Shown piece by piece: positions 3,201 through 33,806 of a DNA stretch of 33,806 nt. Source of the DNA: a candidate division WOR-3 bacterium (GTDB lineage: Bacteria; Hydrothermota; Tepidihabitantia; Tepidihabitantales; Tepidihabitantaceae); NCBI GenBank assembly GCA_903908785.1, contig CAIVTL010000278.1, positions 1-33,806 on the forward strand, read 5' to 3'. The translations under genes were made by a program, and so were the position numbers. Numbering within the stretch: the stretch's first letter is position 1; every line of letters starts with the position of its first letter. The notes beneath the pieces are model-generated. The model saw only the letters and a program-made list of their open reading frames with translations. It ran no database searches and was not told the origin of the DNA.

Positions 3201-3207
3201 GCGGAAG

Positions 3208-3837: not shown

Positions 3838-3840
3838 AAC

Positions 3841-4431: not shown

Positions 4432-4466
4432 GATGAAGGACAAAGGCGGAAGGACCAAGACGGAAG
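4432..4466. repeat. STR block, 5 x 7 bp (GATGAAG GACAAAG GCGGAAG GACCAAG ACGGAAG)
   Basis: Starts 1 nt after the nqrE stop. Intergenic. Confidence 0.85.
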
Positions 4467-4476
4467 GGGCACGGCC

Positions 4477-5580: not shown

Positions 5581-5583
5581 GGC

Positions 5584-5617
5584 GGGAAATGGGACAAAAG
5601 GGACCAAAGAGACACAA
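5584..5617. repeat. STR block, 7-9 bp units (GGGAAAT GGGACAAAA GGGACCAAA GAGACACAA)
   Basis: Covers the start codon and the first 10 codons of menA. Confidence 0.75.
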
Positions 5618-6512: not shown

Positions 6513-7387
6513 ACGGTGTGGGTCGGATACTTGCGCCCATCGAGGCCGCTCTGGCCGCGGTCGAAGAGACCATGGCCCGCCGCAATAATCCCGGCCTCGA
6601 AGTGCTTGCCGGGGGGAAGCGACTGCGCCCCGCGCTCCTCTTGTTCGCCGCCGGGGCGGCCGGGCACGGAGAACACGGACGGACACGGACGAACACAGAC
6701 GGACACGGGCAGGCAATGGCCGACGCGGTTTTGCTGGCGGCCGCGGTAGAGATGGTCCACACGGCATCGCTGATTCACGACGACGTGATTGACGAGTCGA
6801 GCGAGCGACGGAAAGGCGCGGCTCTCCACAAGGTCATCGGGACCCGGGCAGCCATCATCCTGGCCGACTATCTGTTCGTGCAGGGCCTGGCATTACTGGA
6901 ATCGGTCAAACGAACCAGCTTGGTTCCCGAGGTCGTCCGCGAGGTCTTGGTGATGTGTGAAGGGCAATGGCTAGAGATGAAAGTCGCGGCGGGCGCAACC
7001 TGTACCGAGCGACAGTACCATGAGGTAATCGAGAAGAAGACCGCGGCCCTGTTCGCGTTCTGCTGCCGGGCCGGCGGGCGGTTGCGGGGAGCCGATGCCG
7101 CGGAGTTGGCCGCGCTGGATGAGTTCGGCCGGAACTTCGGCTTCGTGTTCCAGTTGCTCGACGATGCGGAGGACATGGGGGAGGGAGAGAGGAAGAAAGG
7201 GAGTAAGAGAGTGAGGGCGGAACAGAACAGTATTGAGCGGGCGATTGCCCAATGCGGCGGACGGCGATACCTGCGCCGAAGCGCGCTGGAATTCGCCCGG
7301 CGGGCTCGGACCGCGGCGCGGAAGATCGCCAACCCGGTGGCCCGGCGAGGCATGATCCGGCTACTGGAATCTGTAGCGGAGGGGTAA
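6509..7387 (+). CDS. Polyprenyl diphosphate synthase (trans-IPPS family)
   Basis: KRLRPALLLF, LIHDDVIDES (first DDxxD) and FQLLDDAEDM (second DDxxD). ATG-6509 overlaps the menA stop (ATGA). The ORF-track N-terminus (6008-6508) is an out-of-frame read through menA. Two repeat blocks are inserted in frame. Confidence 0.75.
   Translation: MNGVGRILAPIEAALAAVEETMARRNNPGLEVLAGGKRLRPALLLFAAGAAGHGEHGRTRTNTDGHGQAMADAVLLAAAVEMVHTASLIHDDVIDESSERRKGAALHKVIGTRAAIILADYLFVQGLALLESVKRTSLVPEVVREVLVMCEGQWLEMKVAAGATCTERQYHEVIEKKTAALFAFCCRAGGRLRGADAAELAALDEFGRNFGFVFQLLDDAEDMGEGERKKGSKRVRAEQNSIERAIAQCGGRRYLRRSALEFARRARTAARKIANPVARRGMIRLLESVAEG
6662..6710. repeat. STR block, about 5 x 10 bp (GAACACGGAC GGACACGGAC GAACACAGAC GGACACGGGC), inside the polyprenyl synthase gene
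   Basis: Encodes GHGEHGRTRTNTDGHG, just upstream of the first DDxxD helix. Confidence 0.85.
7177..7230. repeat. Purine-rich degenerate repeat (GGGAGAG/GGAAGAA/AAGAGAG...), inside the polyprenyl synthase gene
   Basis: Encodes GEGERKKGSKRVRAEQN, directly after the second DDxxD motif. The periodicity is weaker than in the other blocks. Confidence 0.5.
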
Positions 7388-13843: not shown

Positions 13844-13916
13844 GGGTTCTGGGGTTCGGGGGTTCACGGGTTCGGGTTCCAAACCAGAACCCCAGAACCC
13901 GGGAACCCCTGACCCC
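13844..13916. repeat. Inverted pair of GGGTTC-type STR blocks forming a long imperfect hairpin
   Basis: GGGTTCTGGGGTTC (13844-13857) is the exact reverse complement of GAACCCCAGAACCC (13887-13900). It lies between the sigma and anti-sigma genes. Confidence 0.85.
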
Positions 13917-17880: not shown

Positions 17881-17935
17881 GGGAGGGTAGAAGGCGGGAA
17901 TTGTGAATAGTGAATTGAGAATAGGGGAGTTAGGA
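17871..17935. repeat. STR block, about 9 x 7 bp (TAGGGAG TAGGGGA GGGTAGA ... AATTGTG AATAGTG AATTGAG AATAGGG)
   Basis: Intergenic, in the low-GC spacer. Confidence 0.75.
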
Positions 17936-19812: not shown

Positions 19813-19824
19813 GGTTTCCTCCCC

Positions 19825-21546
19825 TTAGTGTCTTCCCGCCCAGCCGGAGTGGGCATTGTCGTGGTTGTAAGTCGGCCAGGCGGTCGGGGCGAGACCAGAA
19901 TTGCCAATGGTCAGGCAGCAGAGCCCATAGTCGTAGCACAGGTAGACGTTCCCATCCGGAGCGACGGCCGGCGTCGGTGCTTCGTCGCCTTCGTCATGCC
20001 CGCCTTGCCTGCGGCCGGCAGTTTCCAGCGAATCCCAGATGGAGAATTCCCATGCGACCAGCCCATTCCAGCCGACGCAGGTTATGTAGTCTTCACTGTT
20101 GATGGACAGCACCGAGCTGTCTGCCAGCACGCAGAGGTTGTCCTCGTAGCCAGGGAAATTCTCCGTCTGGACATCCCAGACGAATCGGCCGTCGGAGTCG
20201 AGGCAGTACAGCGAATAGTCGGATTCGCTCTGGATGTAGATTCGGTCGTCATAGCCGACCGAGATGCCTCCACCGTACAGCAGCGTGGCTTCGGCTGCCC
20301 AGGCCAGCGAACCATCCGGGTTGATGCAGACCAGCGAGTCCATGGCGCTGGCGACAATCAGCCTCTCCCGGCTGTCGAGCGCCGGACAAGACCGGTAGCC
20401 GCCGCCTTTATTCATGTGGCTCGTATCCTGCCAGAACAGCGCCCCGGCAGTGTCCAACGCGAACGCCCCTGCATCGCGTCGGCCCTCGCCTCCGTAGTTG
20501 ACGCCGTAGACAGTGCCGGCCGCGCCCAGCACGACACTGGTGCAGGAACCGCGCCCTGCGTGGTATGTCCACTCCACGCGCGCCGAGTCTCCCAGGTCTC
20601 GAACTCGGGTCAGGTCGCCTTCCCGGGTGACATATACCTGGCCGAACGGGCCGAGGACGGGCGTACAGTCGCCCGGTTGCTGGTCCAGGCGCCAGATGAC
20701 TGCGCCGGTCCCAACATCGAAGCATGTCAGCCCGCGGTTGTCGTCCGCGACGTACAGGCGCGAGCCGTCGGCGCTGACCGACGGCGCAAAGCGCGCGGAC
20801 ATCGGGTCGAGCGGGAGTTTCCAGCGCGTGGTTCCGTCCGCATTGACGCACCAGACATAGTCGTAGTACACACCGCAGACCACGAGATGGCCGTCGGCTG
20901 TGCCGAGCACCGGCGAGCACTCGCTTTCGACCTCCGAGTTGGTCCACAGCACGGCCATCGGGCTTACGGTTACGGTCTTGCGGAGGTCCGGGCAGGCAAC
21001 CATCGAACCCCGGTCCTTGACCACGACCCTTACTGACTGTGGCCCGGTTACCGTCCACTTGCATGAGTCGGTGACGGTCGTACCGGTGGGTACAAAGGGG
21101 GTCCAGGTTGCGCCGGGCAGGTCGCCCCAGATGAACTTCACGCTCACACTGTCGCCGTCCGGGTCCGTGACCCTGACCGATGCGCGGTACCAGCGGTCAA
21201 CGGCCCAGCGCTCCGGGCCGGCGATACTGTCCTCGGCCGTCGGTGGTTGAGAGGAGCGAAACGACAACGGCGCCGACCAGGAGGAATAGAAGCCCTTGTC
21301 GTTGATGGCTATGGCCCTTACCGAGTGAATCCCGGTCACGGCGAACGCGTGCGTGCCGTAGATGGTTTCGCCGCTCGGGACGGCGGATGTCGTCGTCCTG
21401 CTCCCGTCACCCCAGTCGAACACGTATTTCACCTTTAGGCCGTTGGGGTCGGTCGTCGTGGTGAAGAAGCAGAGCGAATCGCCGTATACGTCGGCCCAGG
21501 GCTGAACCGGCGTGAGCGGATACCGCTTGGAACAGCCGGCGAACAC
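19825..21546 (-). CDS. PKD-like + beta-propeller lipoprotein (paralog 2); true start probably upstream at about 21585
   Basis: Same architecture as paralog 1, with stretches nearly identical at the nucleotide level (19355-19390 vs 21131-21166). The GTG-21546 model starts at MFAGC, in the middle of a lipobox. The signal peptide IKYLVPFTLALLAVFAGC is encoded upstream in frame, after AAGGAGG. Confidence 0.7.
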   Translation of the reverse strand: MFAGCSKRYPLTPVQPWADVYGDSLCFFTTTTDPNGLKVKYVFDWGDGSRTTTSAVPSGETIYGTHAFAVTGIHSVRAIAINDKGFYSSWSAPLSFRSSQPPTAEDSIAGPERWAVDRWYRASVRVTDPDGDSVSVKFIWGDLPGATWTPFVPTGTTVTDSCKWTVTGPQSVRVVVKDRGSMVACPDLRKTVTVSPMAVLWTNSEVESECSPVLGTADGHLVVCGVYYDYVWCVNADGTTRWKLPLDPMSARFAPSVSADGSRLYVADDNRGLTCFDVGTGAVIWRLDQQPGDCTPVLGPFGQVYVTREGDLTRVRDLGDSARVEWTYHAGRGSCTSVVLGAAGTVYGVNYGGEGRRDAGAFALDTAGALFWQDTSHMNKGGGYRSCPALDSRERLIVASAMDSLVCINPDGSLAWAAEATLLYGGGISVGYDDRIYIQSESDYSLYCLDSDGRFVWDVQTENFPGYEDNLCVLADSSVLSINSEDYITCVGWNGLVAWEFSIWDSLETAGRRQGGHDEGDEAPTPAVAPDGNVYLCYDYGLCCLTIGNSGLAPTAWPTYNHDNAHSGWAGRH

Positions 21547-21623
21547 GGCGAGCAGGGCGAGCGTGAACGGAACCAGATACTTTATCGCGGCCTCCTTGGT
21601 GACCAGGGTATCATCTATGCAAG

Positions 21624-21652
21624 GTTCTAACTGAAACAGGGGAAGAAGTCAA
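21624..21652 (-). promoter_or_regulatory. Weak sigma70-like promoter on the minus strand (TTGACT-17-TAGAAC) for paralog 2/1
   Basis: Located in the divergent intergenic region 21547-21744. The -10 box lacks the final T. Confidence 0.25.
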
Positions 21653-21668
21653 GGGAGACAGCCGCCGC

Positions 21669-21697
21669 TTGACATCCGTGCCGGGCTGCCGCATTAT
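21669..21697 (+). promoter_or_regulatory. Sigma70-like promoter (TTGACA-17-CATTAT) for paralogs 3-5
   Basis: Consensus -35 box, about 47 nt upstream of ATG-21745. Confidence 0.45.
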
Positions 21698-21744
21698 GTT
21701 CTAGCGGCCAGGGGTATTCTCCGGCCGCAGATTGCGAGGCGAAC

Positions 21745-23304
21745 ATGAAGTCACGATTCGTTGTCCTCATCGTTCTGGCAGCGGCTTTGCTGCTCTCCAC
21801 CGGCGCGGGCTGCGGCAGGAAGCAGTATGCGCCGGTAGTGGACTCGGCCGTGGTCGCGCCGTATTACCCCGACTTTGACAGCGCAAGGCTTACCGTGTGC
21901 GCGCACGACCCGGACGGCGACAGCATTCGGCTGCGCGTCGAGTGGGGTGACAACAGCGACACACTCACGGCTCTCTACGCCAGTCCGTGCCGCGCCGAAT
22001 TGAAGCACGGGTATTCGGATGCAAGTCGGGCCACGGTGATTGTTGCGGCCCTCGACATGAACAACGTCTCCATTCCGGAAACGACGACCGTGCCGGTCGA
22101 GCCGTTTGGCATAGTACAGTGGTGGTGGAAGAGCACTGACCCCAACAACGGGGACGTGGGGTTCATCACGTCGCCGGTCGTAGCCAGTGACGGCATCGTC
22201 GAGCGCGTGTATGCCGGCTGTGATGACTACAAGTTCTACTCCAGCCGGACCAGTGACCGCAGGGGCGAGAAGAGCGCAACCACCAAAGAGCCCGAGTGTC
22301 TATTCAACGGCCATCCCGGCCTCTGCGCCGCCACCGGCCATATCATCGTCGGCAGCGAAGAAGGTGAGCTTTATGCCCTGGAAATCGACGGACTGGCTAA
22401 GGCATGGCAGTGGCCGGATAGCGCCTCGGAGCACGGGACCGGCCTCCAGTGGGGTGCGCCGGCGTTCAACGGTAACAGGATCTACATCGGCCACGAAGGC
22501 CCCCAGGGCTACGACAGCCTGCTCCTGTTTGAGGATGCCGGTGCGCAGGGTAACCGGGTTGCCGCCTATAGCGTCCACGCCGTGGTGATTGACGCGCCGG
22601 TAATCGACGCCGCCGGCAACGTCATCTTCGGCAACGACTCCGGCTACCTCATCAAGATTGACGCCAACCTCAATTCGCCCATCTGGCGCTCCAAACTGCT
22701 GCCTAACGGCGAGGTCCACGGCCCGATTATCGGCGGCGACGGGACCATCTATTGCGCCTCCGATTACTTCCATCTCTTTGCGATTGACCCGGCGACCGGC
22801 ACCGTGAAATCGGGCTGGCCACTGACGCTGAACGGCGACGTGTTTCGACCGGTACTTGGCCAGTCGGCCATCTTCGCCGGCAGCGGCTTCGGCGAGGTTT
22901 ATTCCATCAATCCGGCAACCGGCGGCATCAACTGGACGGACCTGCTCAGTCCGTACCACGGGTTCAGCACTGCCCCAGTCGTCGCGGCCAATGGCTACGT
23001 GTACTTCCAGGACGACGCCGATGTGCTCTACTGTGTGAACCAGGCCGACGGCACGCTCATCTGGTCCTGCAACTGCCCGCTCTACCTCCCACGCGCCGGC
23101 GACTCACACCGACCGAGGAGGACGGGGCTGACCGACTACCGCCCGAACCTGTCAATCTGCGCCAACGGTAACATCATCGTTATAGGCGCTGACGCCTGCT
23201 ACTGCGTCGCCGGCTATCCCGAAGGTCCGCTCGACCCGCTCGCGTCCTGGCCCAAGTGGCAGCACGACTTGTACAACACCGGCAACGTGGACGGAGGAAG
23301 GTAG
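21745..23304 (+). CDS. PKD-like + beta-propeller lipoprotein (paralog 3)
   Basis: Signal peptide ending in ...STGAGC. Has DPDGDSIRLRVEWGDNSD. Propeller repeats (ADGTLIWS etc.). C-terminus WPKWQHDLYNTGNVDGGR. Confidence 0.75.
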   Translation: MKSRFVVLIVLAAALLLSTGAGCGRKQYAPVVDSAVVAPYYPDFDSARLTVCAHDPDGDSIRLRVEWGDNSDTLTALYASPCRAELKHGYSDASRATVIVAALDMNNVSIPETTTVPVEPFGIVQWWWKSTDPNNGDVGFITSPVVASDGIVERVYAGCDDYKFYSSRTSDRRGEKSATTKEPECLFNGHPGLCAATGHIIVGSEEGELYALEIDGLAKAWQWPDSASEHGTGLQWGAPAFNGNRIYIGHEGPQGYDSLLLFEDAGAQGNRVAAYSVHAVVIDAPVIDAAGNVIFGNDSGYLIKIDANLNSPIWRSKLLPNGEVHGPIIGGDGTIYCASDYFHLFAIDPATGTVKSGWPLTLNGDVFRPVLGQSAIFAGSGFGEVYSINPATGGINWTDLLSPYHGFSTAPVVAANGYVYFQDDADVLYCVNQADGTLIWSCNCPLYLPRAGDSHRPRRTGLTDYRPNLSICANGNIIVIGADACYCVAGYPEGPLDPLASWPKWQHDLYNTGNVDGGR

Positions 23305-23310
23305 GCGAAG

Positions 23311-25050
23311 GTGAAATTACGGCTGCGTTCCTTGTCAGTCCTTGCCGCAGCCTTGGCGCTCCTGTGCGCCGGCTGCGACGAGCACGCGCGTCTCGGCGTT
23401 TGGATAGTCTCCGGGCCGACCCAGGTCGCCCGCGGCGCCATGGCGACCTACGTCGTAAGAAGCGGGTATAGTGGATTCTTCTCGTCTGGTGGAACACTCC
23501 GCTACCGTGTGGAATGGGGCGACAGCATGACCGCGACCAGTGACCCTCGCTCAATTGGTGACACGGTCCTGTTCACTCACGCGTGGCGCAAGTCAGGGAC
23601 ATACACAGTGACGGCTTTGGCCTACGGCATCCCTGATTCGCGTTCGTACCCGCGGTACGTTGTCGTGTCGGATTCCAACGACCCGGTGATTGACTCGGCA
23701 CAGTTCTACTCCGACTGGCGGCCGGCAGAACTTGTCGCCGTCGCGCACGCCCCGGCCGGTGAGAGCCTCAGGCTTGCCGTAGCGTGGGGCGACGGCCAGA
23801 ACGAAACGACCGGGTTCCTGCCCAGCCCCTGCCGACTCAGCGCAATTCACCGCTATGCAGACGCCGCGCACGTGCAGGTCGTGGTCAGGGCCCTGGACGA
23901 GTCCGGCAGGATGTCATTTCCGGACACTCTCTCGGGCTCGGTCTCGACGTATGGGGAGGTCACAAGCTTCAACCTCGGCGACTACTCCGGCTCGCCGGTC
24001 ATCGCTCTCAACGGCTCCGATGAAAACGTCTACCTCATCGGTTCAGACGGTTTCTACGGCCTGCGCCCCGGAGGAGCTAAATACATCTGTCTTGGAGCTT
24101 TCGTTGGCCATCCTTCGTTCTCCAGTCTGACCGCACACGTCTACATCGGCTCGGACGATGGCCGGCTGCATGCTTTTACCCCGACGCTCGGGCTTGCCTG
24201 GAGTTACCCGTCCGACGAATCGATTACCGGCCCGGAGTGGGGGGCGGCCACGGTCAATGGCAGCGCGCTGTATGTGCCGTGCGCGAACGAGAGCATCTAC
24301 TATCTCATTGACAATGGCGCGTCGGTCATCCGTGGGGCTGTGTTCGGCGCTCAGGCTGCGCTGGTTGACGCCCCGGTGATTGACGCCGGTGGCAACGTCT
24401 ACTTTGGGACTGACTCAGGTTACCTGTACAAACTGACCAGCAGCCTTTTCTTCCTCTGGCGCGCACGCCTGCAGGCGGGCGGCGTTATTCACGGCCCGGT
24501 GCTCGACGCCGACGGCACGGTCTACTGTTCATCAGACTCGAACCGGCTCTTTGCCGTGAACCCGGCCGACGGGTCGGTGAAATGGACTGCGGCGCTGGAT
24601 GGTGCCGGCCCGCGACCTGTCGTCGGTTCCGACGGCGTCTATGTCGGCACTTCGACCGGCCATTTCTACCGGCTCGACAAGACCACCGGCGCGATAGCCT
24701 GGGAGAAGCAATTCGAGGGTGCCGAGTTTGCCTCCTGTCCGATACTCGTCGCCTATAGCGTCTACGCGGTCACGACGAGCGACGTTCTCTACTCTCTCTA
24801 CCGGCAGGATGGCTCCACTAGCTGGGTCTGCAATTGCCCGAAGTACCTGCCCAGACAGGGTCGCTACAGGCCACTGCATCTGACCGACTACTACCCAAGC
24901 CCGACCGTGAACTCGTCCGGCGAGGTGTACGTGGTCGGCTCAGAAGCCCTCTACAAGCTCAACACCTACGGCCAACTCGACGCCGCGTCCCCCTGGCCCA
25001 AGTGGCAGCACGACCGCTATAACACCGGCCACGTCGGCGGAGGAAGGTAG
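23311..25050 (+). CDS. PKD-like + beta-propeller lipoprotein (paralog 4)
   Basis: The GTG start lies 6 nt after the upstream stop. Signal peptide LLCAGC. YRVEWGDSMT and LRLAVAWGDGQNETT modules. Propeller repeats. C-terminus WPKWQHDRYNTGHVGGGR. Confidence 0.75.
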   Translation: MKLRLRSLSVLAAALALLCAGCDEHARLGVWIVSGPTQVARGAMATYVVRSGYSGFFSSGGTLRYRVEWGDSMTATSDPRSIGDTVLFTHAWRKSGTYTVTALAYGIPDSRSYPRYVVVSDSNDPVIDSAQFYSDWRPAELVAVAHAPAGESLRLAVAWGDGQNETTGFLPSPCRLSAIHRYADAAHVQVVVRALDESGRMSFPDTLSGSVSTYGEVTSFNLGDYSGSPVIALNGSDENVYLIGSDGFYGLRPGGAKYICLGAFVGHPSFSSLTAHVYIGSDDGRLHAFTPTLGLAWSYPSDESITGPEWGAATVNGSALYVPCANESIYYLIDNGASVIRGAVFGAQAALVDAPVIDAGGNVYFGTDSGYLYKLTSSLFFLWRARLQAGGVIHGPVLDADGTVYCSSDSNRLFAVNPADGSVKWTAALDGAGPRPVVGSDGVYVGTSTGHFYRLDKTTGAIAWEKQFEGAEFASCPILVAYSVYAVTTSDVLYSLYRQDGSTSWVCNCPKYLPRQGRYRPLHLTDYYPSPTVNSSGEVYVVGSEALYKLNTYGQLDAASPWPKWQHDRYNTGHVGGGR

Positions 25051-26907
25051 ATGAACATGAAGTCACGACTTGCGGCTCTCACCGCAGCGGCCGCGACGCT
25101 TCTGATTATCGCAGGCGCAAGTTGCCAACGGACGATTAGGCCACCTGTGTTCGTGTCAGTCCCGGAGACTGTCTTTGCCGGTGAAGTCGCGCATCTGCGC
25201 CTCGTGACGTACGTGCTCGGCTACCAGAGCACCGGCTACGTCATGGACTGGGGCGATACCGTTGAGACTGACTCCGGCCGGTTCCCGCTCGGCGACACAG
25301 GGACCGTCTCCCACGTGTGGTCTGCGCCCGGCGTCAAGCAGGTGCGGGCGCGGGCATTCCCTTTCGCCGACCCGACGCTGCTGACGGACTGGTCTGAACG
25401 TGAAACCGTAGTCGTCGTTCCGGGCGGTGAAGGTGCGCCGGTGATAGACACTGTCTTCGTCGACCCGCCGGTCGCGGTAAGAGGCGTGGAAGGGTCCCTA
25501 ACCGTCGTGGCTCACGACCCAGGCGGCGACAGCATCAGGATAATCCTTGACTGGGGCGACGGCACCGACACGACGACTAACTTCTTTCCCAGCCCATGCA
25601 GCGTCGTGGTCGGTCACACATTTGGACAGGTTGAGACCGCCAGGGTTCTCATTATCGCCCAAGACTGGAAGGGTGCGTCGTCATTGCCCGAAACCGTCTC
25701 TATCCCGGTCGGCACTGCCGGCGGCGTCAACTGGTGGTGGCAGAGCAGCGACCCCGAGAACCCGGGCGAGCCATGCACGACTTCGCCGCTCATTGTCACC
25801 GTCGGCGGCGACGAACGCCTGTTCTTTAGCGACGAGGGCGACGGCAAGTTCTACTCCATCCGTGCTAGCGGCTTTGGGGGTGAGAAGTCAGCGACCACTC
25901 GCTGGCCGGGAGGCACTTTCTCCGGCCATCCGGCGTTCTGCGAGGCGACCCAGCACATCATCATCGGCAGCGACGAAGGCGAACTCTACGCCCTGAAGGT
26001 CGACGGGCTTGGCAAGGACTGGCATTGGCCGGACAATCCTGAATCGCTACTGACTGGTCTCGAATGGGGCGCACCGGCAATCAAGGGCAACCGGCTCTAC
26101 GTCCCGCATGAAGACGACAGCCTGTTTCTATTCGAGGACGTCGGCCTACAGGGCAACCGCGTTGCCGCTTACCCGGTCAACGCCTCGGTGGTTGATGCGC
26201 CGGTGATTGACGCACAGGGCAACGTCTACTTCGGCACGGACTCGGGCTACCTGTACAAGATGGGCCCGGAACTGGACACCGTGTACTGGCGTACGCGCCT
26301 GCTGGCCAACGGCGAGATTCACGGCCCGGTCATCGGCGGTGACGGGGCCGTCTATTGCGCGTCCGACCAGTCCCGCGTCTACGCGATTGACCCAGTGAGC
26401 GGAACCCCGCTATGGACCGCAACACTGGACGGCGACGTATCACGCTTGGCCTTGGGCCAGTCGGCCATCTTCGTCGGCAGCGGCTCCGGCCACGTCTATT
26501 CCATAGACCCGGCAACCGGTGAAAAGAACTGGGAGAAGCAGCTCACCCTGACCGCAGGGTTCAGTACAACGCCCATCGTCGCGGCTAACGGCTATGTGTA
26601 CTTTCAGGATGACGACGACGTGCTATACTGCCTGAACCAGGCCGACGGCACCATCATCTGGTACTGCAAGTGCACGGACTACCTGCCGCGCGCAGGTGGC
26701 GGCGGTCCACACCGGCCGAGAAAGACACAGTTGTTCGACTACGCGCCGAACCCGACGATTCTGGCCAACGGCAACATCATTGTCTGCGGTGACGATGCAC
26801 TCTACTGTGTGGCCGGCTATCCCGAAGGTCCACTCGATGGTGCCGCCCCTTGGCCCAAGTGGCAGCATGACGTGTACAACACCGGATACGTGGGCGGAGG
26901 AAGGTAG
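25051..26907 (+). CDS. PKD-like + beta-propeller lipoprotein (paralog 5)
   Basis: The ATG abuts the upstream TAG. Signal peptide ...IIAGASC. YVMDWGDTVE and IRIILDWGDGTDTTT modules. It is the closest paralog of 21745-23304. C-terminus WPKWQHDVYNTGYVGGGR. Confidence 0.75.
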   Translation: MNMKSRLAALTAAAATLLIIAGASCQRTIRPPVFVSVPETVFAGEVAHLRLVTYVLGYQSTGYVMDWGDTVETDSGRFPLGDTGTVSHVWSAPGVKQVRARAFPFADPTLLTDWSERETVVVVPGGEGAPVIDTVFVDPPVAVRGVEGSLTVVAHDPGGDSIRIILDWGDGTDTTTNFFPSPCSVVVGHTFGQVETARVLIIAQDWKGASSLPETVSIPVGTAGGVNWWWQSSDPENPGEPCTTSPLIVTVGGDERLFFSDEGDGKFYSIRASGFGGEKSATTRWPGGTFSGHPAFCEATQHIIIGSDEGELYALKVDGLGKDWHWPDNPESLLTGLEWGAPAIKGNRLYVPHEDDSLFLFEDVGLQGNRVAAYPVNASVVDAPVIDAQGNVYFGTDSGYLYKMGPELDTVYWRTRLLANGEIHGPVIGGDGAVYCASDQSRVYAIDPVSGTPLWTATLDGDVSRLALGQSAIFVGSGSGHVYSIDPATGEKNWEKQLTLTAGFSTTPIVAANGYVYFQDDDDVLYCLNQADGTIIWYCKCTDYLPRAGGGGPHRPRKTQLFDYAPNPTILANGNIIVCGDDALYCVAGYPEGPLDGAAPWPKWQHDVYNTGYVGGGR

Positions 26908-26982
26908 CGAGTAACGGAACCTGAGGGACTGCTTCCGCCTCACGGCGGGTATCGGAAGCTGCGGAGCTTCCAGGCCGCGCAG

Positions 26983-27483
26983 TTGGTCTACGACGCCACG
27001 GTGCTGTTCTGTGACAGATTCGTGGACAAGCGCTCACGCACGCATGACCAGATGGTGCAGGCGGCGCGAAGCGGCGTGCAGAATATCGCGGAGGGCAGCA
27101 TGGCTTCGGCGACGTCGAAGAGGACAGAGCTGAAGCTGACCGGCGTTGCGCGGGCCAGCCTGGAGGAGTTGCTCCTGGACTTCGAGGATTTCCTGCGCCA
27201 GCGCGGGCTCAAGCTCTGGAGCAAAGATGACCCACGCGCTTTGGCAGTGAGGCGGCGCTATCAGTCAGACCGGTCGGACTTGTCGGACAGAGAGGCGCAA
27301 GCGCAAGCGAGGAAGCGCAAGCAGAGGCCAAGAATCCGATGCTTGAGCTTGGGCTTGAGCTTGGGTAAGCAGCCCCCGCTGCTGCACCGGCAGATGCAGC
27401 AGTTGGAGCAGGCGTTCCTCGCCGAGGGCGGGTTCACCGAGCGGCTGTACCGCGAGCGACGGGCGCGTCGGCAGAACCAGTAG
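26983..27483 (+). CDS. Four-helix-bundle protein with 'suffix' domain (formerly '23S rRNA intervening-sequence protein' family); N-terminus lacks a canonical start
   Basis: VYDATVLFCDRFV...MVQAARSGVQNIAEGS and the C-terminal QQLEQAFLAEGGFTERLYRERRARR are family-like. Conserved-looking residues (PPHGGYRKLRSFQAAQL) continue upstream to the TAG at 26905-26907 with no ATG/GTG/TTG before TTG-26983. Three repeat blocks are inserted between the two domains. Confidence 0.55.
   Translation: MVYDATVLFCDRFVDKRSRTHDQMVQAARSGVQNIAEGSMASATSKRTELKLTGVARASLEELLLDFEDFLRQRGLKLWSKDDPRALAVRRRYQSDRSDLSDREAQAQARKRKQRPRIRCLSLGLSLGKQPPLLHRQMQQLEQAFLAEGGFTERLYRERRARRQNQ
27262..27365. repeat. Three abutting STR blocks: 3 x 9 bp (CAGTCAGAC CGGTCGGAC TTGTCGGAC), GCGCAA-type hexamers, and 2 x 12 bp (GCTTGAGCTTGG)
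   Basis: All lie in frame inside the four-helix-bundle gene and encode QSDRSDLSDREAQAQARKRKQRPRIRCLSLGLSLG. Confidence 0.85.
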
Positions 27484-27531: not shown

Positions 27532-28704
27532 GTGACTGAACAACATAAGCCGGTCGCCGTTGCCCTGCTTTCCGGCGGGCTGGATTCGACGCTGGCGGCA
27601 AAGGTGATTCTGGAGCAGGGTATCACGGTTATCGGTATCAACTTCGCCGGGGCATATTGCCCGCGGCCGCTTGCGGGCAAGAGCCGCGCGGAGAAGGCGG
27701 CGGAGAAGCTGGGCATCGAACTCGTGACCCTGCCGATTGACGCGGAGTTCATCGCGATGGTAAAGAACCCGCGACACGGCCGGGGCAGGAACATGAACCC
27801 GTGCATTGACTGCCATACGTTGATGATACGCAAGGCGTGGGCATGGGGACAGACCGAGCCGGAATCCAAAACCCAAAACCCAAAACCTAAGAGCCAGAGA
27901 GATGAACCACCGATGCACTGTCGGACAGGGGCCTCGGCGGCCAACACGGATAACCGGGCAGATGTCTCCGAGAAAACTATCTGTGTTCATCAGTGTCCAT
28001 CTGTGGTTAGCTGGTATGACCGAGCGGATTTCGTCATCACCGGCGAGGTGCTGGGGCAGCGGCCGATGTCGCAGAACCGGAACGCGCTTAACACAGTGGC
28101 CAGCTGGTCCGGCGTGGGAGAGCGGCTGCTTCGGCCGATGTCGGCGAAACTGCTCAACCCAACTGCGCCTGAGCAGGAGGGCCTGGTTGACCGCGAACGG
28201 TTGCTGAACATCGAGGGCAGGCAGCGGAATCGCCAGATGGCGCTGGCCGAGAAGTATGGCATCAAGGACTACCCGTCGCCGGCCGGCGGGTGTCTCTTGA
28301 CCGAGAAGGTCTATTCGAAGCGGCTGGCCGAGGCGTTCGACCACGGTGAGGATTCGCTTGAGATAGTCGAACTGCTTTCACTGGGCAGGCATTTCCGCCT
28401 GCCTTCCGGCGCGCGGTTGGTCGTGGGGCGGGACGAGAGGGAGAACGACGAACTGCTGCGGCGTAAACCGGCGGGCGCGGTCGTGATTGACGCGGGCGAT
28501 TTGCCGGGACCAGTGGGAATACTCGCGAAGGGATCAAGGGATCAAGGGATCGAGGGATCGAGTGACGAAGCGTTGGCCGCGAGGATTTGCGCGCGGTTCA
28601 GCGACAAGCGGAAAGAGAAACTCGCGCGGGTCGTGATTGCGGGCGAGGCGGTTGACGTCGAGCCCGCGAGTGAAGAGGAATCGGCCCGGCTACTGATTGC
28701 GTGA
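27532..28704 (+). CDS. PP-loop (adenine-nucleotide alpha-hydrolase) ATPase, MnmA/ThiI-like thiolation-type enzyme
   Basis: VALLSGGLDST PP-loop close to the N-terminus. NPCIDCH, FVITGEVLGQRPMSQ and YPSPAGGCLLTE are also present. An in-frame foreign segment of about 50 aa (repeat block plus the 107-bp mosaic element, 27865-28009) and an octamer repeat (28530-28561) interrupt the protein. Confidence 0.6.
   Translation: MTEQHKPVAVALLSGGLDSTLAAKVILEQGITVIGINFAGAYCPRPLAGKSRAEKAAEKLGIELVTLPIDAEFIAMVKNPRHGRGRNMNPCIDCHTLMIRKAWAWGQTEPESKTQNPKPKSQRDEPPMHCRTGASAANTDNRADVSEKTICVHQCPSVVSWYDRADFVITGEVLGQRPMSQNRNALNTVASWSGVGERLLRPMSAKLLNPTAPEQEGLVDRERLLNIEGRQRNRQMALAEKYGIKDYPSPAGGCLLTEKVYSKRLAEAFDHGEDSLEIVELLSLGRHFRLPSGARLVVGRDERENDELLRRKPAGAVVIDAGDLPGPVGILAKGSRDQGIEGSSDEALAARICARFSDKRKEKLARVVIAGEAVDVEPASEEESARLLIA
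27865..27899. repeat. STR block, 5 x 7 bp (TCCAAAA CCCAAAA CCCAAAA CCTAAGA GCCAGAG)
   Basis: In frame in the PP-loop ATPase gene (SKTQNPKPKSQR). It directly abuts mosaic element copy 2. Confidence 0.85.
27903..28009. repeat. 107-bp mosaic palindromic element, copy 2 (inverted, with one module transposed)
   Basis: The reverse complement aligns to copy 1 end to end. The exception is the 27-bp module CGCTGTCGGACAGGGGCCGCAGCGGCC, which sits on the other side of the 45-bp AACAC...GTGTT module and is flipped. Confidence 0.85.
28530..28561. repeat. STR block, 4 x 8 bp (GGGATCAA x2, GGGATCGA x2)
   Basis: In frame in the PP-loop ATPase gene, encoding GSRDQGIEGS. Confidence 0.9.
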
Positions 28705-29133: not shown

Positions 29134-29160
29134 GCCATCGGCCGCGACGCGCGTCCGGTA

Positions 29161-29195
29161 ACTGCAAACTGCAAACCGGTCACTGCAAACTGGCC
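29161..29195. repeat. STR block, 5 x 7 bp (ACTGCAA ACTGCAA ACCGGTC ACTGCAA ACTGGCC)
   Basis: Intergenic, immediately upstream of the smc promoter. Confidence 0.85.
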
Positions 29196-29200
29196 TCTGC

Positions 29201-29238: not shown

Positions 29239-32200
29239 GTGCGAATAAAAGAGCTCCAGCTCATCGGTTTCAAGTCTTTCCAGGACAAAGCGACGCTGCG
29301 TTTCTCGCCGGGCCTGAACGCGGTCATCGGGCCGAACGGCTGCGGCAAGACCAACATCCTCGACGCATTGCGCTGGGTGCTGGGCGAGCAGTCGTTCACC
29401 ATGCTCCGCTGCGCGAAGAACGAGGACCTGATATTCGGCGGCACGGCCACGGTAGCGCCGGTGAACTACGCCGAGGTGAAGTTGGTGATGGATGACGTGG
29501 AACAGGGGTCAGGGGTCAGGGGTCAGGGTCCAGGGATGACAGAGGTGGAGATACGGCGCAGGTACTTCCGGTCGGGCGAGAGCGAGTACTACCTGAACAA
29601 GCAGCCGTGCCGGTTGCGTGACATCCAGGAGGTCTTTTTCTCGGCCGGGGCCGGCACCAAGGCCTATTCGATATTCGACCTGCGCCAGATGCGCGAGATT
29701 ATCTCCGGCAACATCCGGAAGATGTTCGAGGAGGCGGCGAGCCTGGCGAAGTACAACGACGCCAAGGCCGACTGCCGGCGCAAGCTCGAACTGACCGCGG
29801 GCGACCTGATGCGCCTCGATGACATCATCGCTGAGCGCGAGCGGTTCGTGCGCAGCCTGCAGCGGCAGGCCGGCCGGTTGCGGGCGTTCGACAAGCTGAA
29901 GACCGAAGAGAAGGGACTGCGGCTGCTGGAATTGAAGGCCGACTACGAGGCGATGCAGCGGGACCTCGGGCGGGCTCAAGCCGACACCGAGGCGCTGGAG
30001 CAGGCCGAGGCCGCGCGGGTGGCGGACATCCGGCGGCTGGATGAGGAGCTTAAGATTCAGCGCGGCCGGGTGCGCGACCTGCAGGCGCTGAAGGATGAGC
30101 TGGCCGCCAAGGTGCAGGCCCAGCGGCAGGTGTTGTCCGACCTCGAAGGTCGGGACCTGCTGGCGCGGCAGCGGATAGAGTTTCTTGCCAGCGCGACCGG
30201 CCAGGCCGAGACCGAGCGCGCCGCGCTGGCGGAGAGCGTGCTCCAGATGGAGCAGACGTTTGAGCAGACTCTTGCTCGACTGGCCGAGGCGAACGAGCGC
30301 CAGGCGCGGGCGCAGGAGCAGCTCGAACGCCAGCGGGCGCTGGTGCAGTCGCTCGAGGAGCAACTGTACGGACTGCGCAGCCACGAGACCGCGCTTCGGC
30401 AGCAGGTCCAGGAGCGGCAGGAACAGGAGCAGGGCGGCCGGCAGGAACTGGCAAGGCTCGATGCGACGATTGACAACCAGCGCGAGACCGTGGAGCGGCT
30501 GGCCGGAGAGGCGAGCGCGGTCCGAGAACGAAGAACGAGGAACGAAGAACAAAGAACGGAAATCGGGCTGAAGGTCGCGGCGGCGGCCGCGGCCATCGAG
30601 ACGGGCCGGAAACGACTCGAAGCATTGCGCGCCGAGTTCGTCCAGGCCCGGGACGACCGGAACCGGCTGCGCGCGGATGATGCCAGGCTGCGCGAGGAGC
30701 GGGCCGGGCTGGAAACCGATTTGGCGGTGCTGCGCGCCGGGATTGCGAGCGAGCAGGCGGAGGTGAGCCGAGCCGCGCTGGCCGAGGCGTTGCGCGGCGA
30801 GGCGGGCGCGTTTCTCGACGTGACGTCCGGGTGGGAGCGGGCGTGCGAGGCAGCGCTGTACGCGGTGGTTGATTTTCTGGTCGCAGACCTGCCCGGGCCG
30901 GACAAGCTCGGGGAACTGGCCGAGAAGCGCCCGGACCTGCGGTTCGGCTTCCTAGTGGAAGAAAGGGTTCAAGGGTTCAGGGGTTCAGGGGTCCAGGCGG
31001 AGGAGCCCGGAGACCTGCCCTCAGACCCGGCCGTCATTGGACCACTGTCGGGGTTTGTGAAGGTGAAGGCGGAGGCGCCGGCCGCGCTGCACGAGCTGGT
31101 CAATGGGTGCCTCGTGGCCGCGAGCGCGGGCGAGCTGGGCCGGCTGGCGCAGCAGTTCCCGGGCTGGTCGTTTGTGACGCAGGACGGCGTGTGCCGGTTC
31201 TCGGACGGGCGGCTGGTAATTGAAGGGCGCGAGAGCGGGCGGCTGAGCGCGGGGCGGGCGATTCACGACAAGAGCGAGCGGCTCGGCGCGGTCGATGCGG
31301 AACTGGTCGGGATTGCGACGAGCGAGGCTGCGTTGGCCCGGCGCCGCGAGGAGCTGGAAAAGGAAATCGGGCAGGTTGAGTTCGAGGTCGGCGAGACCGG
31401 GCGGGAGAAGGCTTCGCTCGATGCGTCGCTGGAGCTGATTGCCGCGACCGGCGAAGATATGGGCCGAGACGTGGAACGGCTCAGGGCCGCGCAGTATGCG
31501 GCCGCGGCCCAGAAGCGGGCGGTCGAGGAGAAGCGGGCCGCGCTCGCCGCAGCGGGCGGCGAGCTTGAGACCCGGACCCAGGCCGGCACCGGCGCGCTCA
31601 AGCAGGCCGAGGAGGAAGCACGCAAACTCGAAGAGCAGGTCAAGGCCGGGCTGGATTTGTCGTCGCAGGCGCTGGCCGAGCTCTCCGACGCGCGGCAGGC
31701 CGGATCCCGGCTTGAGGCCGAGAATGCGTTCGCCAAGCGCCAGATTGACGACGGCCGGCGCCGGCTGCACGAGTACGCGGCGGCAGCGGAGCGCAACCGC
31801 GATGAGAGCGCGGGGCTGGAGAAGGAAATCGGCGACCGGGCCGCGGAGATTGAGCAGGCGCGTTCCATCCTGACCGACCTTGACGCGGAAACCGGGAAGC
31901 TGCACATCGGCGAACTGGCACGGGCCGAGGAGGCGCTGGAGGCCAACCTCGCCGAACTGCGCCAGTCGCAGGAGCGAAACCAGAACGTCTTGATGGAGCA
32001 ACGGCTGAAGCTGTACGAGCTGAACCAGCGGTTTGCCGCCATCAGCGAAGAGGCGAAGTCGAGCTATGGAACCGACATCGCCGCGTTCCAGCCCGAGGCG
32101 GCGGAGGGCGCCGAGGAACGGCTGGCACAAGTGCGGCAGCGGCTCGAAGCGCTCGGGCAGGTGAACCCGCTGGCCGCGCAGGAGTACGCGCAGGAGAAGT

Positions 32201-32781
32201 CGGACCTGGAGAAACTGACGGTCCAGCGCGAGGACGTAGCCGCGGCCAAGGTGAACCTCGAAAGCACCCTGACCGAGATTGACCGGCACGCGCAGGAGCA
32301 ATTCGCCGTGACCTACAGCGAGGTGCGCGGCCACTTCCGCGAGATATTCCAGGCCCTGTTCCTCGAGGGCGAGGCGGACCTGGTGATGACGAACGAAGCC
32401 AACCCGCTGGAATCGGAAATCGGCATCATCGCCAAGCCGAGAGGCAAGACCCCAAAGCGGCTCGAACAGCTCTCCGACGGCGAGAAGGCGCTGCTCGCGG
32501 TGTCACTGTTGTTCGCGTTCTACCGGGTGAAGCCCGCGCCGTTCTGTTTTCTCGACGAGGTGGACGCGCCGCTGGACGACGCCAACGTCGGCCGGTTCGC
32601 CGACTATCTCAAGGGGATATCGGACAAGACCCAGGTGGTCATCATTACGCATAACCGGCTGTCCGTCGAGCGCGCCGACGTCGTGTTCGGCGTCACCGCG
32701 GAGCAGCCCGGCATCTCGACGCTCGTGTCGGTCAGCCTGGCTGAATACCGCCGGCAGGCACAGCCGCCGACTGCGAGCTAG
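29239..32781 (+). CDS. smc: Chromosome partition protein SMC
   Basis: Walker A GPNGCGKTN, long coiled coils, a hinge region, signature LSDGEKALLAVSL, and Walker B FCFLDEVDAPLD. 1180 aa with a GTG start. Three repeat blocks lie in frame. Confidence 0.92.
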   Translation: MRIKELQLIGFKSFQDKATLRFSPGLNAVIGPNGCGKTNILDALRWVLGEQSFTMLRCAKNEDLIFGGTATVAPVNYAEVKLVMDDVEQGSGVRGQGPGMTEVEIRRRYFRSGESEYYLNKQPCRLRDIQEVFFSAGAGTKAYSIFDLRQMREIISGNIRKMFEEAASLAKYNDAKADCRRKLELTAGDLMRLDDIIAERERFVRSLQRQAGRLRAFDKLKTEEKGLRLLELKADYEAMQRDLGRAQADTEALEQAEAARVADIRRLDEELKIQRGRVRDLQALKDELAAKVQAQRQVLSDLEGRDLLARQRIEFLASATGQAETERAALAESVLQMEQTFEQTLARLAEANERQARAQEQLERQRALVQSLEEQLYGLRSHETALRQQVQERQEQEQGGRQELARLDATIDNQRETVERLAGEASAVRERRTRNEEQRTEIGLKVAAAAAAIETGRKRLEALRAEFVQARDDRNRLRADDARLREERAGLETDLAVLRAGIASEQAEVSRAALAEALRGEAGAFLDVTSGWERACEAALYAVVDFLVADLPGPDKLGELAEKRPDLRFGFLVEERVQGFRGSGVQAEEPGDLPSDPAVIGPLSGFVKVKAEAPAALHELVNGCLVAASAGELGRLAQQFPGWSFVTQDGVCRFSDGRLVIEGRESGRLSAGRAIHDKSERLGAVDAELVGIATSEAALARRREELEKEIGQVEFEVGETGREKASLDASLELIAATGEDMGRDVERLRAAQYAAAAQKRAVEEKRAALAAAGGELETRTQAGTGALKQAEEEARKLEEQVKAGLDLSSQALAELSDARQAGSRLEAENAFAKRQIDDGRRRLHEYAAAAERNRDESAGLEKEIGDRAAEIEQARSILTDLDAETGKLHIGELARAEEALEANLAELRQSQERNQNVLMEQRLKLYELNQRFAAISEEAKSSYGTDIAAFQPEAAEGAEERLAQVRQRLEALGQVNPLAAQEYAQEKSDLEKLTVQREDVAAAKVNLESTLTEIDRHAQEQFAVTYSEVRGHFREIFQALFLEGEADLVMTNEANPLESEIGIIAKPRGKTPKRLEQLSDGEKALLAVSLLFAFYRVKPAPFCFLDEVDAPLDDANVGRFADYLKGISDKTQVVIITHNRLSVERADVVFGVTAEQPGISTLVSVSLAEYRRQAQPPTAS
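29505..29535. repeat. STR block (GGGGTCA x3, GGGTCCA, GGG), inside smc
   Basis: Encodes GSGVRGQGPG in the N-terminal head domain. It has five G-runs. Confidence 0.9.
30526..30560. repeat. STR block, 5 x 7 bp (GAACGAA GAACGAG GAACGAA GAACAAA GAACGGA), inside smc
   Basis: Encodes ERRTRNEEQRTE in the coiled coil. Confidence 0.9.
30965..30996. repeat. STR block, 4 x 8 bp (GGGTTCAA GGGTTCAG GGGTTCAG GGGTCCAG), inside smc
   Basis: Encodes RVQGFRGSGVQ in the hinge-proximal region. Confidence 0.9.
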
Positions 32782-32784
32782 TCC

Positions 32785-33666
32785 GTGAATCCATTCGCTA
32801 GAATCGGGGCCGGCTTCAAGAAGCTGGCGAGCGGCCTTTCCAAGACCCGCCAGGTGTTCCAGCGGCTGCTGGTCGCGGCCAATACCGAGGAACTGGAAGA
32901 GGCTTTGCTCGCCGCCGATGTCGGGGTCAAGGCTACTGAAATCCTGGTAGACAAGGTGAAGCGTGCGTCCGGCGACCGGCGCCTGGTCCTTGAAGCTGAA
33001 ATCGCCCGCCTGCTTTCCCCACCCCAATCCCTAGCCCCCAGTCCCCAATTCCCTCCTTTGGTGGTCATGATTGTCGGCGTGAACGGGTCGGGCAAAACCA
33101 CGACCGTGGGCAAGCTCTGCCGGCTGTTTGCCGACCAGGGGCAGCGGGTGGTTGTTGCCGCGGCAGATACGTATCGTGACGCTGCGGCCGAGCAACTCGG
33201 GATTTGGGCAACGCGCGCCGGGGTCGAGATTGTCTCGTCCGTACAGGGGCAGGACGCGGCCGCGGTTGCGTTCGACGCGATTCAGAAGGCGGCGCTGAAG
33301 AAGATGGATGTCGTGCTGGTTGATACCGCGGGCCGGCTCCACACGCGCAAGGACCTGATGGACGAGGCCGTGAAGATAAAGCGGGTCTGCGCCAAAGTGA
33401 AGGCCGGGGCCCCGGACGAGGTCTGGCTGGTGCTCGACGCAACCGTGGGGCAGAACGGCCTGCGTCAGGCCGCGGCGTTCAACGAGCAACTCGGGCTGAC
33501 CGGCCTCGTCGTCACCAAACTCGACGGCACGGCCAAGGGCGGGGTGCTGATTCCGATTGTCATGGAACTGGGCGTGCCCGTGAAGTTCATCGGTACCGGC
33601 GAGACTCTCGAAGACATCGAGCCGTTTGAGCCGGAAGCCTACGCGAAGGCGCTGTTTGAGGAGTGA
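32785..33666 (+). CDS. ftsY: Signal recognition particle receptor FtsY
   Basis: NG domain motifs GVNGSGKTTT, DTAGRLH, TKLDGTAKGG and FIGTGE. The GTG lies 3 nt after the smc stop. A C-rich heptamer repeat sits in frame just before the P-loop. Confidence 0.9.
   Translation: MNPFARIGAGFKKLASGLSKTRQVFQRLLVAANTEELEEALLAADVGVKATEILVDKVKRASGDRRLVLEAEIARLLSPPQSLAPSPQFPPLVVMIVGVNGSGKTTTVGKLCRLFADQGQRVVVAAADTYRDAAAEQLGIWATRAGVEIVSSVQGQDAAAVAFDAIQKAALKKMDVVLVDTAGRLHTRKDLMDEAVKIKRVCAKVKAGAPDEVWLVLDATVGQNGLRQAAAFNEQLGLTGLVVTKLDGTAKGGVLIPIVMELGVPVKFIGTGETLEDIEPFEPEAYAKALFEE
33017..33056. repeat. C-rich STR block (CCCCACC CCAATCC CTAGCCC CCAGTCC CCAATTC CCTCC), inside ftsY
   Basis: Encodes PPQSLAPSPQFPP, directly before the G-domain P-loop strand VVMIVGVNGSGKT. 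Confidence 0.85.
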
Positions 33667-33778
33667 GGAGTAGGTAGTAGGTAGGAGATAGTAGGTAGGA
33701 CGAGGAGTGTCCCTCCTACCTCCCACCTCCTACCTTCTACCTTCTACCTCCTACCTCCTACCTCCTACCTCCTACCTG
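33666..33778. repeat. Inverted pair of GGTAGGA / TCCTACC heptamer arrays (long imperfect hairpin) after ftsY
   Basis: Left arm GAGGAGTAGGTAGTAGGTAGGAGATAGTAGGTAGGACGAGGAG. Right arm CTCCTACCTCCCACCTCCTACCTTCTACC(TCCTACC)n. Probable terminator-like structure. Confidence 0.85.
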
Positions 33779-33806
33779 CTAACTCTCGTCGGTTTTCTCC
33801 GGCGGC

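Follow-up and report, generated by a model that had tools for sequence, protein, structure and literature searches.

In-frame arrays of 7-8-nt tandem repeats in the smc gene of a candidate division WOR-3 bacterium belong to a genome-wide crop of repeats and probably persist where selection permits

The stretch of DNA under study comprises 33,806 nt from a candidate division WOR-3 bacterium (assembly GCA_903908785.1, contig CAIVTL010000278.1, positions 1 to 33,806 of the forward strand) and is hereafter called the window. It carries the smc gene, and within the reading frame of this gene lie three short arrays of 7-8-nt tandem repeats, one in the head (site 1), one in the coiled coil (site 2), and one in the hinge (site 3) of the encoded protein. 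A preliminary description of the window, made from the sequence, had taken all three for in-frame insertions into an essential gene. We found that the arrays are real and in frame, but that only sites 1 and 3 are insertions; at site 2 the length of the protein is unchanged. Moreover, the smc arrays are not specific to smc but are members of a genome-wide crop of arrays. We consider it probable that the three blocks are ordinary, lineage-wide simple-sequence-repeat arrays of 7-8-nt units that have been filtered by selection at permissive sites.

The open reading frame (ORF) that contains the three arrays (Table 1) is a full-length bacterial SMC, and it is open and continuous through all three repeat blocks. 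Its product scored 728.9 bits against TIGR02168 SMC_prok_B (cut-off 567.35), with residues 2-1167 aligned to model positions 1-1181, and it also matched Pfam SMC_N; its homologs assign it to candidate division WOR-3. The head aligned with the Bacillus subtilis Smc head 3zgx (E=5e-47), and the head motifs of the ATP-binding cassette (ABC) type were present in the translation as GPNGCGKT (residues 31-38), LSDGEK (1078-1083), and FCFLDEVDAPLD (1102-1113). A structural model was made with AlphaFold2 from a 55-sequence alignment (mean predicted local distance difference test score, pLDDT, of 78). In this model, helices 169-502 and 668-1040 lie on either side of a globular region at 503-667, and the whole has the architecture of an SMC: the head is split and bears the Walker A, signature, and Walker B motifs, and a pair of long helices running antiparallel leads to a hinge in the middle. 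A search of the hinge sequence against the PDB gave no match, and the hinge was placed by the AlphaFold model instead. For comparison, 54 SMCs of WOR-3 (38-93% identity) were aligned, with codon threading for the 22 relatives for which DNA was available; a scan of genome contigs with the SMC alignment, whose patterns were very generic, yielded mainly SMCs of other phyla, and these supplied the control from unrelated phyla, including the set of 15 SMCs used below.

Arrays were located with Tandem Repeats Finder (TRF), which reported one at each of the three places named in the preliminary description (encoded residues 90-99, 430-441, and 576-586); the encoded peptides also agreed with that description. 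Coiled coils are compositionally biased to E, R, Q, and A, and the blocks might accordingly be chance low-complexity sequence in a GC-rich coiled-coil gene. However, when the codons of smc were shuffled 2000 times, no shuffle (0/2000) contained any 35-nt segment with a period-7/8 match of at least 0.75; the real gene contained exactly three such segments, with matches of 0.82-0.93. In addition, 11 arrays of the period-7/8 type with a TRF score of at least 50 were found in the window and none in 50 dinucleotide shuffles (0/50). The two kinds of shuffle together exclude chance low complexity, to which we assign a negligible probability.

Table 1. Positions of smc, its repeat arrays, and other features of the window
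Feature	Position	Strand	Details
smc	29239..32781	+	1180 aa, GTG start; head 1-168 and 1041-1180, coiled coil 169-502 and 668-1040, hinge 503-667
Site 1 array (CAGGGGT)	29503..29535	+	~4.7 units; residues 89-99 (QGSGVRGQGPG); TRF
Site 2 array (AGAACGA)	30525..30558	+	x4.9, 85% matches; residues 430-441 (ERRTRNEEQRTE); TRF
Site 3 array (GGGTTCAG)	30965..30997	+	x4.1, 92% matches; residues 576-586 (RVQGFRGSGVQ); TRF
Intergenic array (AACTGCA)	29160..29200	+	x4.7; just upstream of smc; TRF
ftsY linker array, CCCCAAT-type heptamers	33020..33055	+	encodes N-G domain linker PPQSLAPSPQF; ftsY is the next gene after smc
ftsY-end hairpin, (AGTAGGT) + inverted (CCTCCTA)	33669..33785	.	x4.3 and x10.6; after ftsY stop; TRF
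Intergenic hairpin, (GGGTTCNG)n + inverted array	13844..13916	.	fold -52.8 kcal/mol; TRF
MnmA-like/NFACT-R_2 gene	27532-28704	+	two genes upstream of smc; Pfam
MnmA-like/NFACT-R_2 in-frame arrays, CCAAAAC, ATCTGTGTCC, and AAGGGATC	27866..28559	+	x3.1, x2.7, and x4, plus 123-nt in-frame insertion; TRF
G-quadruplex motifs	13844, 13890(-), 28530, 29505, 30965, 33029(-)		canonical

At site 1, the units are perfect (100%) over 3.7 copies and degenerate after that. The loop in which they lie has 16-18 residues in the window and in relatives P0002, P0003, and P0004, and 11 residues in nearly all other SMCs, including P0001 (93% identical) and B. subtilis, which shows a 5-residue gap at this spot. For the window this amounts to a net gain of 5 aa (15 nt). 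When the codons of the 22 relatives were aligned, the ancestral sequence was CAG GGN GAG GGT CAG, so that one GGGTCAG unit was already there. In the AlphaFold model, strands 77-85 and 102-110 of the head are separated by a loop of residues 89-99. These data support the view that site 1 is a lineage-specific +5-aa extension of a beta-hairpin surface loop of the head. P0127, P0033, and a Solibacteraceae SMC have insertions of their own in this loop, unrelated to the array. The one in P0127 (MCX6840834.1) has a length of ~36 aa and a high content of Pro, Glu, and Ser, although this sequence falls in the 90%-identity cluster of P0003; because it differs from P0003 in this way, the loop is hypervariable even among near-identical genes.

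Site 2 is of another kind. No gap was found there when the window was compared with 54/54 WOR-3 orthologs and 15/15 SMCs of other phyla, and the site 2 residues share alignment columns with SMCs of unrelated phyla, which is what the preliminary description itself had named as speaking against an insertion. In the model, the site lies inside the uninterrupted helix 169-502 with a pLDDT of ~85-88. The array is restricted to the clade of the window, P0001, P0002, and P0003; its periodicity arose at the base of this clade, with the length unchanged. In the window, a cluster of three substitutions (GCC AAG to ACG AGG) has brought unit 2 closer to the consensus. Site 2 is an equal-length, repeat-like coiled-coil sequence and not an insertion. 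Nor is site 2 the ancestral sequence read in a shifted frame, as the nucleotides are unrelated.

Site 3 had been placed near the hinge; according to the AlphaFold model, it lies inside the hinge domain itself, where a loop of residues 576-590 separates strands 571-574 and 599-602. Two alleles were found in relatives, a long G-rich one (GGGGTYCA units, encoding GVQGFRGSGVQ) and a short C-rich one (GTCCCYA-type units, encoding VPSPQSPAPRP). The C-rich allele is 21 nt shorter, and against it the window has gained 7 aa. Against P0004/L116 the gain is 8 aa: L116 has one GGGGTTCA unit, the window and L001 have four, and the difference of 24 nt equals three 8-nt units. Site 3 is therefore best described, with support from these comparisons, as a lineage-specific gain of 7-8 aa in a tolerated surface loop of the hinge. 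The possibility that the G-rich allele is an inverted C-rich allele was excluded, because each GGGGTYCA unit carries TGA in its reverse complement, so that an inverted array would interrupt the reading frame, and because the lengths differ by 21 nt. Residues 89-99 and 576-590 are the only internal segments of the model with a pLDDT below 50, and within the smc clade of the window nearly all indels fall at sites 1 and 3. The earlier suggestion of tolerated surface loops, and the expectation that an alignment of orthologs would reveal lineage-specific insertions, held for these two sites; neither applies to the confident helix of site 2.

One relative, L013, carries an smc (Ga0315284_10012957, 3001-6583; ~30405 and ~31018 in the window) that is 89% identical to that of the window. 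In this gene an 11-nt deletion in the coiled coil shifts the frame, leaving 19 stops in frame 0, and P0036 (785 aa; cluster of n=6 sequences) corresponds to the C-terminal part of its product. Behind site 3, the gene carries in addition an in-frame insertion of 63 nt; the CCTCGAAT units of this insertion constitute an inverted arm able to form a hairpin of about -79 kcal/mol with the upstream array. The L013 smc may be a split gene, a decaying gene, or an assembly error.

Because the units are 7 or 8 nt long, a change of one unit would shift the frame, as in phase-variable contingency loci, which likewise place units that are not multiples of three in a reading frame. The preliminary description had stated that the frame is kept and that only frame-preserving versions are retained, and both statements were borne out. 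Among relatives, all length variants at the smc arrays were multiples of 3 nt, the step at site 3 between L116 and the window being one of three units. No smc allele frameshifted at an array was found among the close relatives recovered as DNA (the L013 deletion lies elsewhere), nor were unit-number variants that switch the smc frame seen among relatives. Unlike contingency loci, moreover, smc is a housekeeping gene and its arrays are short (4-5 units). On the SMC tree, the alleles at both site 1 and site 3 show a patchy distribution in which sister sequences differ, and this points to allele exchange or repeated turnover.

Orientation is also constrained. Neither GGGGTCA nor GGGTTCAG contains a stop triplet in any frame, but TGA occurs in the reverse complement of each; arrays of these units can thus be translated only in the orientation observed. 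These results bear on the suggestion that the segments are removed or ignored at some level, for instance as an intein, an intron, or a ribosomal bypass. The sole point in its favor is that relatives dispense with sites 1 and 3. An intein or intron would be much larger than these segments of 31-35 nt, and an Rfam scan of the whole window gave no match. Every allele seen has kept its frame and its freedom from stops, which removal would not need, and GGGGTCA and GGGTTCAG are present only in the stop-free orientation; site 2, moreover, is needed for a coiled coil equal in length to that of all orthologs. We give removal or skipping almost no credence. The array segments are most likely translated.

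The preliminary description had treated the arrays as a feature of smc. Throughout the window, however, 38 non-overlapping tandem arrays were found compared with 8.2 expected from the 50 dinucleotide shuffles, and 20 with a period of 7, 8, 14, or 16 compared with 2.3. Most of the 38 have a period of 7-8 and measure about 33 nt, and arrays of this kind occur likewise in close WOR-3 relatives. They lie in or between many genes, including those of the Rnf/Nqr operon, a UbiA-family gene, a heptaprenyl-synthase/CbiQ fusion, the MnmA-like/NFACT-R_2 gene, and ftsY, among others; the coding arrays of genes other than smc occupy N-termini and inter-domain linkers. When the density of strong 7/8-nt arrays was compared, the window had 4.4 per 10 kb, close relatives 2.1, and distant WOR-3 1.3 (two loci only), and in 79 genomes from other phyla the surroundings of smc had 0.24. 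Period 7 was modal only in this WOR-3 clade. Outside WOR-3, the highest densities at smc loci were found in L046 (Desulfobacterales) and L092 (Thiomargarita sp.), the latter from a family already known for heptamer repeats.

Across the clade (~250 kb), the arrays had a median length of 33 nt (peak 30-34 nt) and a mean of 4.5 copies. Total length was alike for period 7 (31.8 +/- 3.6 nt) and period 8 (31.7 +/- 3.9 nt), and the median was 33 nt both for units with and for units without runs of G or C; it seems that the length in nucleotides, and not the copy number, is held constant. The units were diverse, with 47 canonical ones and no dominant G-rich consensus, and G3 or C3 runs occurred in 19/60 strong arrays. 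Strong arrays were 4-6x denser in non-coding DNA (6-10 per 10 kb) than in coding DNA (~1.7 per 10 kb); 39/60 nevertheless lay in coding sequence, according to crude gene calls that require open frames. The idea that unit degeneracy has been selected to suppress slippage found no support, as the units matched at 89.2% in coding arrays and at 88.1% in intergenic arrays, and as site 1 is perfect over its 3.7 units.

Two neighboring genes were informative about turnover within arrays. In ftsY, the linker array keeps the same length in most of the 20 relatives aligned, and its unit differs by lineage (AGCCCCA, AGTCCAA, AGYCCGA, TCCNGAG, or CCCCAAT). Units within an array were more alike (identity 0.62) than orthologous units (0.42; 89/105 pairs), and homogenisation within arrays is, as judged from these alignments, visible at this linker. 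In the MnmA-like/NFACT-R_2 gene, the product has 390 aa compared with 328-353 aa in 11 orthologs, the excess consisting of the three arrays and the 123-nt insertion. The extra sequence is concentrated at 27866-28021 and 28528-28559. More distant relatives have nothing at the position of the array-bearing loop of this gene.

The arrays could also be kept for a function at the level of nucleic acid, as G-quadruplexes (G4), other structures, or binding sites that act in transcription, in translation pausing at domain boundaries, or in replication, the peptide being incidental. The window has only six canonical G4 motifs (G3+N1-7 x4), each of them a 7-8-nt array, and two of these are on the sense strand of site 1 (29505-29528) and site 3 (30965-30991). 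The narrow array length (~32 +/- 4 nt), and the persistence of periodicity and length in the ftsY linker across lineages while the peptide changes, agree with such a function, and related repeats of Xanthomonas and Nostoc form G4 in vitro (PMC4692102). However, no function was found for those repeats either (PMC4692102). Two thirds of the strong WOR-3 arrays are without a G3 or C3 run, yet their lengths are distributed in the same way; G4 potential is absent from site 2, and sites 1 and 3 are dispensable, since they are absent from many close relatives, including the 93%-identical P0001. Concerted evolution, moreover, requires no selection. A nucleic-acid-level function consequently appears to us quite improbable.

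Intergenic arrays often stand opposite an inverted copy and form long hairpins, as at 13844-13916 and 33669-33785 in the window; pairs of this kind also make up hairpin elements in L114 and L013. The units of the 13844-13916 hairpin belong to the families of smc sites 1 and 3, with 13 nt identical to site 1 and 21/24 nt identical to site 3. The hairpin at the end of ftsY consists of inverted repeats with 32-nt arms that are 88% complementary (fold -69.6 kcal/mol) and is likely a terminator; relatives have (TTAGGAG)n at its position. Just upstream of smc, where the window has its AACTGCA array, L114 has an unrelated unit. In L114, L001, and L013, a 129-nt hairpin element, (GAATAGT)n plus (CACTATT)n, sits in the last smc codons (L114 7214-7342) and turns the SMC C-terminus PPTAS* into ...EIVN*, the old terminal codons remaining downstream.

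Two side observations concern the DNA upstream of smc. The window has a gene for a 166-aa four helix bundle protein (26916-27483; TIGR02436 plus the TIGR04258 suffix domain) that does not occur in the 86%-identical L114, and arrays together with inverted arrays (AAGCGCAAGC / GCTTGAGCTTGG) lie at 27299-27411, between its two domains. Further upstream, five consecutive paralogs of ~600 aa that encode PQQ_2-type beta-propellers, two on the minus and three on the plus strand, occupy 18010-26907.

Taken together, these data favor ordinary simple-sequence-repeat arrays passed through a selective filter. Under this explanation, arrays of 7-8-nt units (4-5 copies, ~33 nt) would arise and turn over quickly throughout the WOR-3 genome. 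An array would most likely be born when a local seed is copied, by strand slippage or from a template, and its units would then be homogenised among themselves; local seeds are present as GGGTCAG in the ancestral site 1 and as the single site 3 unit of L116. Those arrays that survive within genes would need a net length change in multiples of 3, an orientation free of stops in every frame, and a position that tolerates a low-complexity peptide. It is in the pattern of where arrays survive that this filtering step shows itself. In smc the outcome would be two disordered-loop extensions rich in Gly, Ser, Arg, and Gln, in the head (+5 aa) and in the hinge (+7-8 aa), together with a coiled coil turned periodic at site 2; because the length of site 2 is unchanged, the two arms of the coiled coil still match. 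The array segments probably have little effect on SMC function.

Several points weigh against this explanation. At site 2, no recognisable seed was found in the outgroup, and an equal-length replacement is awkward for pure expansion. At site 3, the split into G-rich and C-rich alleles is hard to derive by local slippage. The constant array length of 33 nt, across periods and G content, goes unexplained. Two further observations are likewise hard to reconcile with local slippage. One and the same loop of the MnmA-like/NFACT-R_2 protein is encoded by AAGGGATC in the window, by CAGATTG in L114 and L116, and by T-rich units in L004 and L016. An identical unit order of 19/19 nt, AATAGTGAATTGAGAATAG, occurs at window position 17906 (intergenic, 17898-17924) and in the 129-nt element at the end of smc. 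Furthermore, the census comprises ~250 kb (249 kb) of mostly orthologous loci, in which coding and intergenic DNA were split by crude gene calls, and the neutrality of the arrays at the protein level is something that we infer.

Some of these points would be accommodated if the arrays were miniature mobile or templated elements, with cassettes and hairpins copied from other loci and the smc blocks being insertions or half-sites. The exact 19-nt unit order shared with the smc-end element of L114, L001, and L013 agrees with this, as do the unrelated units at the same MnmA-like/NFACT-R_2 loop in close relatives, the 63-nt in-frame insertion of L013 that gives an inverted arm to the site 3 array, the equality of site 1 and site 3 units with those of the 13844-13916 hairpin, and the patchy alleles on the SMC tree; in-frame palindromic insertions are also known in Rickettsia (PMC10969869). 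However, no inverted partner was found for any of the three smc arrays of the window, and neither target-site duplications nor a terminal consensus were seen. The units number in the dozens (47 canonical) rather than forming a few conserved families, and seeds exist locally at sites 1 and 3. Homologous recombination between lineages could equally yield the patchy alleles. The sole transposase nearby, a Y1_Tnp (IS200/RAYT-like) gene of L116 (5380-6045) directly upstream of smc, has its own repeats, perfect 28-nt inverted repeats (CCAATAACTAGGGACGCTACCCATTTT) on its flanks with a second copy downstream, which resemble repetitive extragenic palindromic (REP) sequences. These are not arrays and were not found in the window, and a link of the arrays to REP sequences and their RAYT transposases was rejected on this ground. 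No transposase, template, or target duplication that would account for the arrays was found. We regard mobile or templated elements as unlikely, and rate a shade lower still the related idea of an unrecognised active process that writes ~33-nt cassettes of 7-8-nt units, at times with the inverted copy, at recurrent sites in the WOR-3 clade, swaps unit families, and spreads unit orders between loci. Were it true, such a process would act as a micro-mobile or templated-repair system, altering the loops and linkers of proteins by the hundreds, essential ones among them, and building terminator hairpins.

The filtered simple-sequence-repeat arrays of WOR-3 have close counterparts elsewhere. A general class of long simple sequence repeats with 5-11-nt units, found in large GC-rich genomes of free-living bacteria, was reportedly described by Mrazek et al. 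in 2007 (cited in PMC4692102), who are said to have noted an over-representation of heptamers and to have ascribed the arrays to their tendency to expand when the polymerase slips, and not to any particular function. The WOR-3 arrays are of the same general kind, although to our knowledge that survey was without WOR-3 and describes neither the in-frame occupation of loops in housekeeping proteins nor a set-point in length. The nearest parallel is with the heptamer arrays GGGAATC of Xanthomonas and GGGGA(C/T)T of Nostoc (Rehm et al. 2015, PMC4692102). These prefer four units, are 89-93% intergenic and 7-11% intragenic, form ~70 convergent inverted pairs, and vary strongly between close relatives; an origin in polymerase slippage was proposed for them (PMC4692102). 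As in Xanthomonas and Nostoc, tandem repeats of 7-8 nt occur beyond chance in WOR-3, in about four units, dispersed, enriched between genes, near gene ends, and in some cases in ORFs. Convergent pairs of an array and an inverted array able to form hairpins are likewise found in the window and in related loci, close relatives differ widely in the length and sequence of their arrays, and G4 potential is predicted at smc sites 1 and 3 and at the array at 28528 (AAGGGATC). The differences are that WOR-3 has dozens of units, mostly without G runs, that 7- and 8-nt units share the same ~33 nt, and that about two thirds of the strong arrays are coding by the gene calls used here, compared with the 7-11% of the other two genera.

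Similar comparisons apply to the short tandemly repeated repetitive (STRR) heptamers of cyanobacteria and the TAACTGA arrays of Beggiatoaceae and cyanobacteria (MacGregor 2015, PMC4679880). Both are direct heptamer repeats in 2-6 copies, mostly intergenic, whose occasional copies within ORFs are free of stops and lie at the protein periphery, and a limit set by stop codons on array orientation was argued earlier for TAACTGA (PMC4679880). TAACTGA is, however, a single unit located just upstream of start codons, related heptamers being seldom in arrays; WOR-3 has many units, and internal loops and linkers are among the places that its arrays occupy in conserved proteins. Rickettsia palindromic elements, which are in-frame insertions in protein-coding genes (reviewed in PMC10969869), resemble the smc blocks in placing repeat DNA in frame in housekeeping genes at positions compatible with the fold. 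They are, however, ~150 bp long and palindromic and comprise ten conserved families, each with its own conserved peptide; as direct repeats of 33 nt, the smc blocks have neither an inverted arm nor a conserved peptide, and their units differ between sites, so that the window arrays are not of this type or of the type of MITEs (miniature transposable elements with inverted repeats), although hairpin versions exist in relatives. A literature search for WOR-3 together with tandem repeats returned nothing relevant.

Three points are left unexplained, namely the constant length of 33 nt, the replacement of units at sites that stay fixed, and the identical unit orders at unrelated loci. With these findings, the heptamer-repeat phenomenon known from Xanthomonas, cyanobacteria, and Beggiatoaceae is extended to a phylum that is uncultured. 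The notion that the preference for four units arises from G-quadruplex formation is weakened, because WOR-3 units without G runs share the 33-nt size. In many WOR-3 proteins the arrays inflate and diversify loops, and care is needed in annotation and alignment; they also mark hot spots of recombination and indels that are useful for strain typing. Finally, smc shows selection filtering a high birth rate of repeats inside an indispensable, length-constrained protein, in which the survivors are in frame, free of stops, and located in disordered loops or present as equal-length replacements in the coiled coil.

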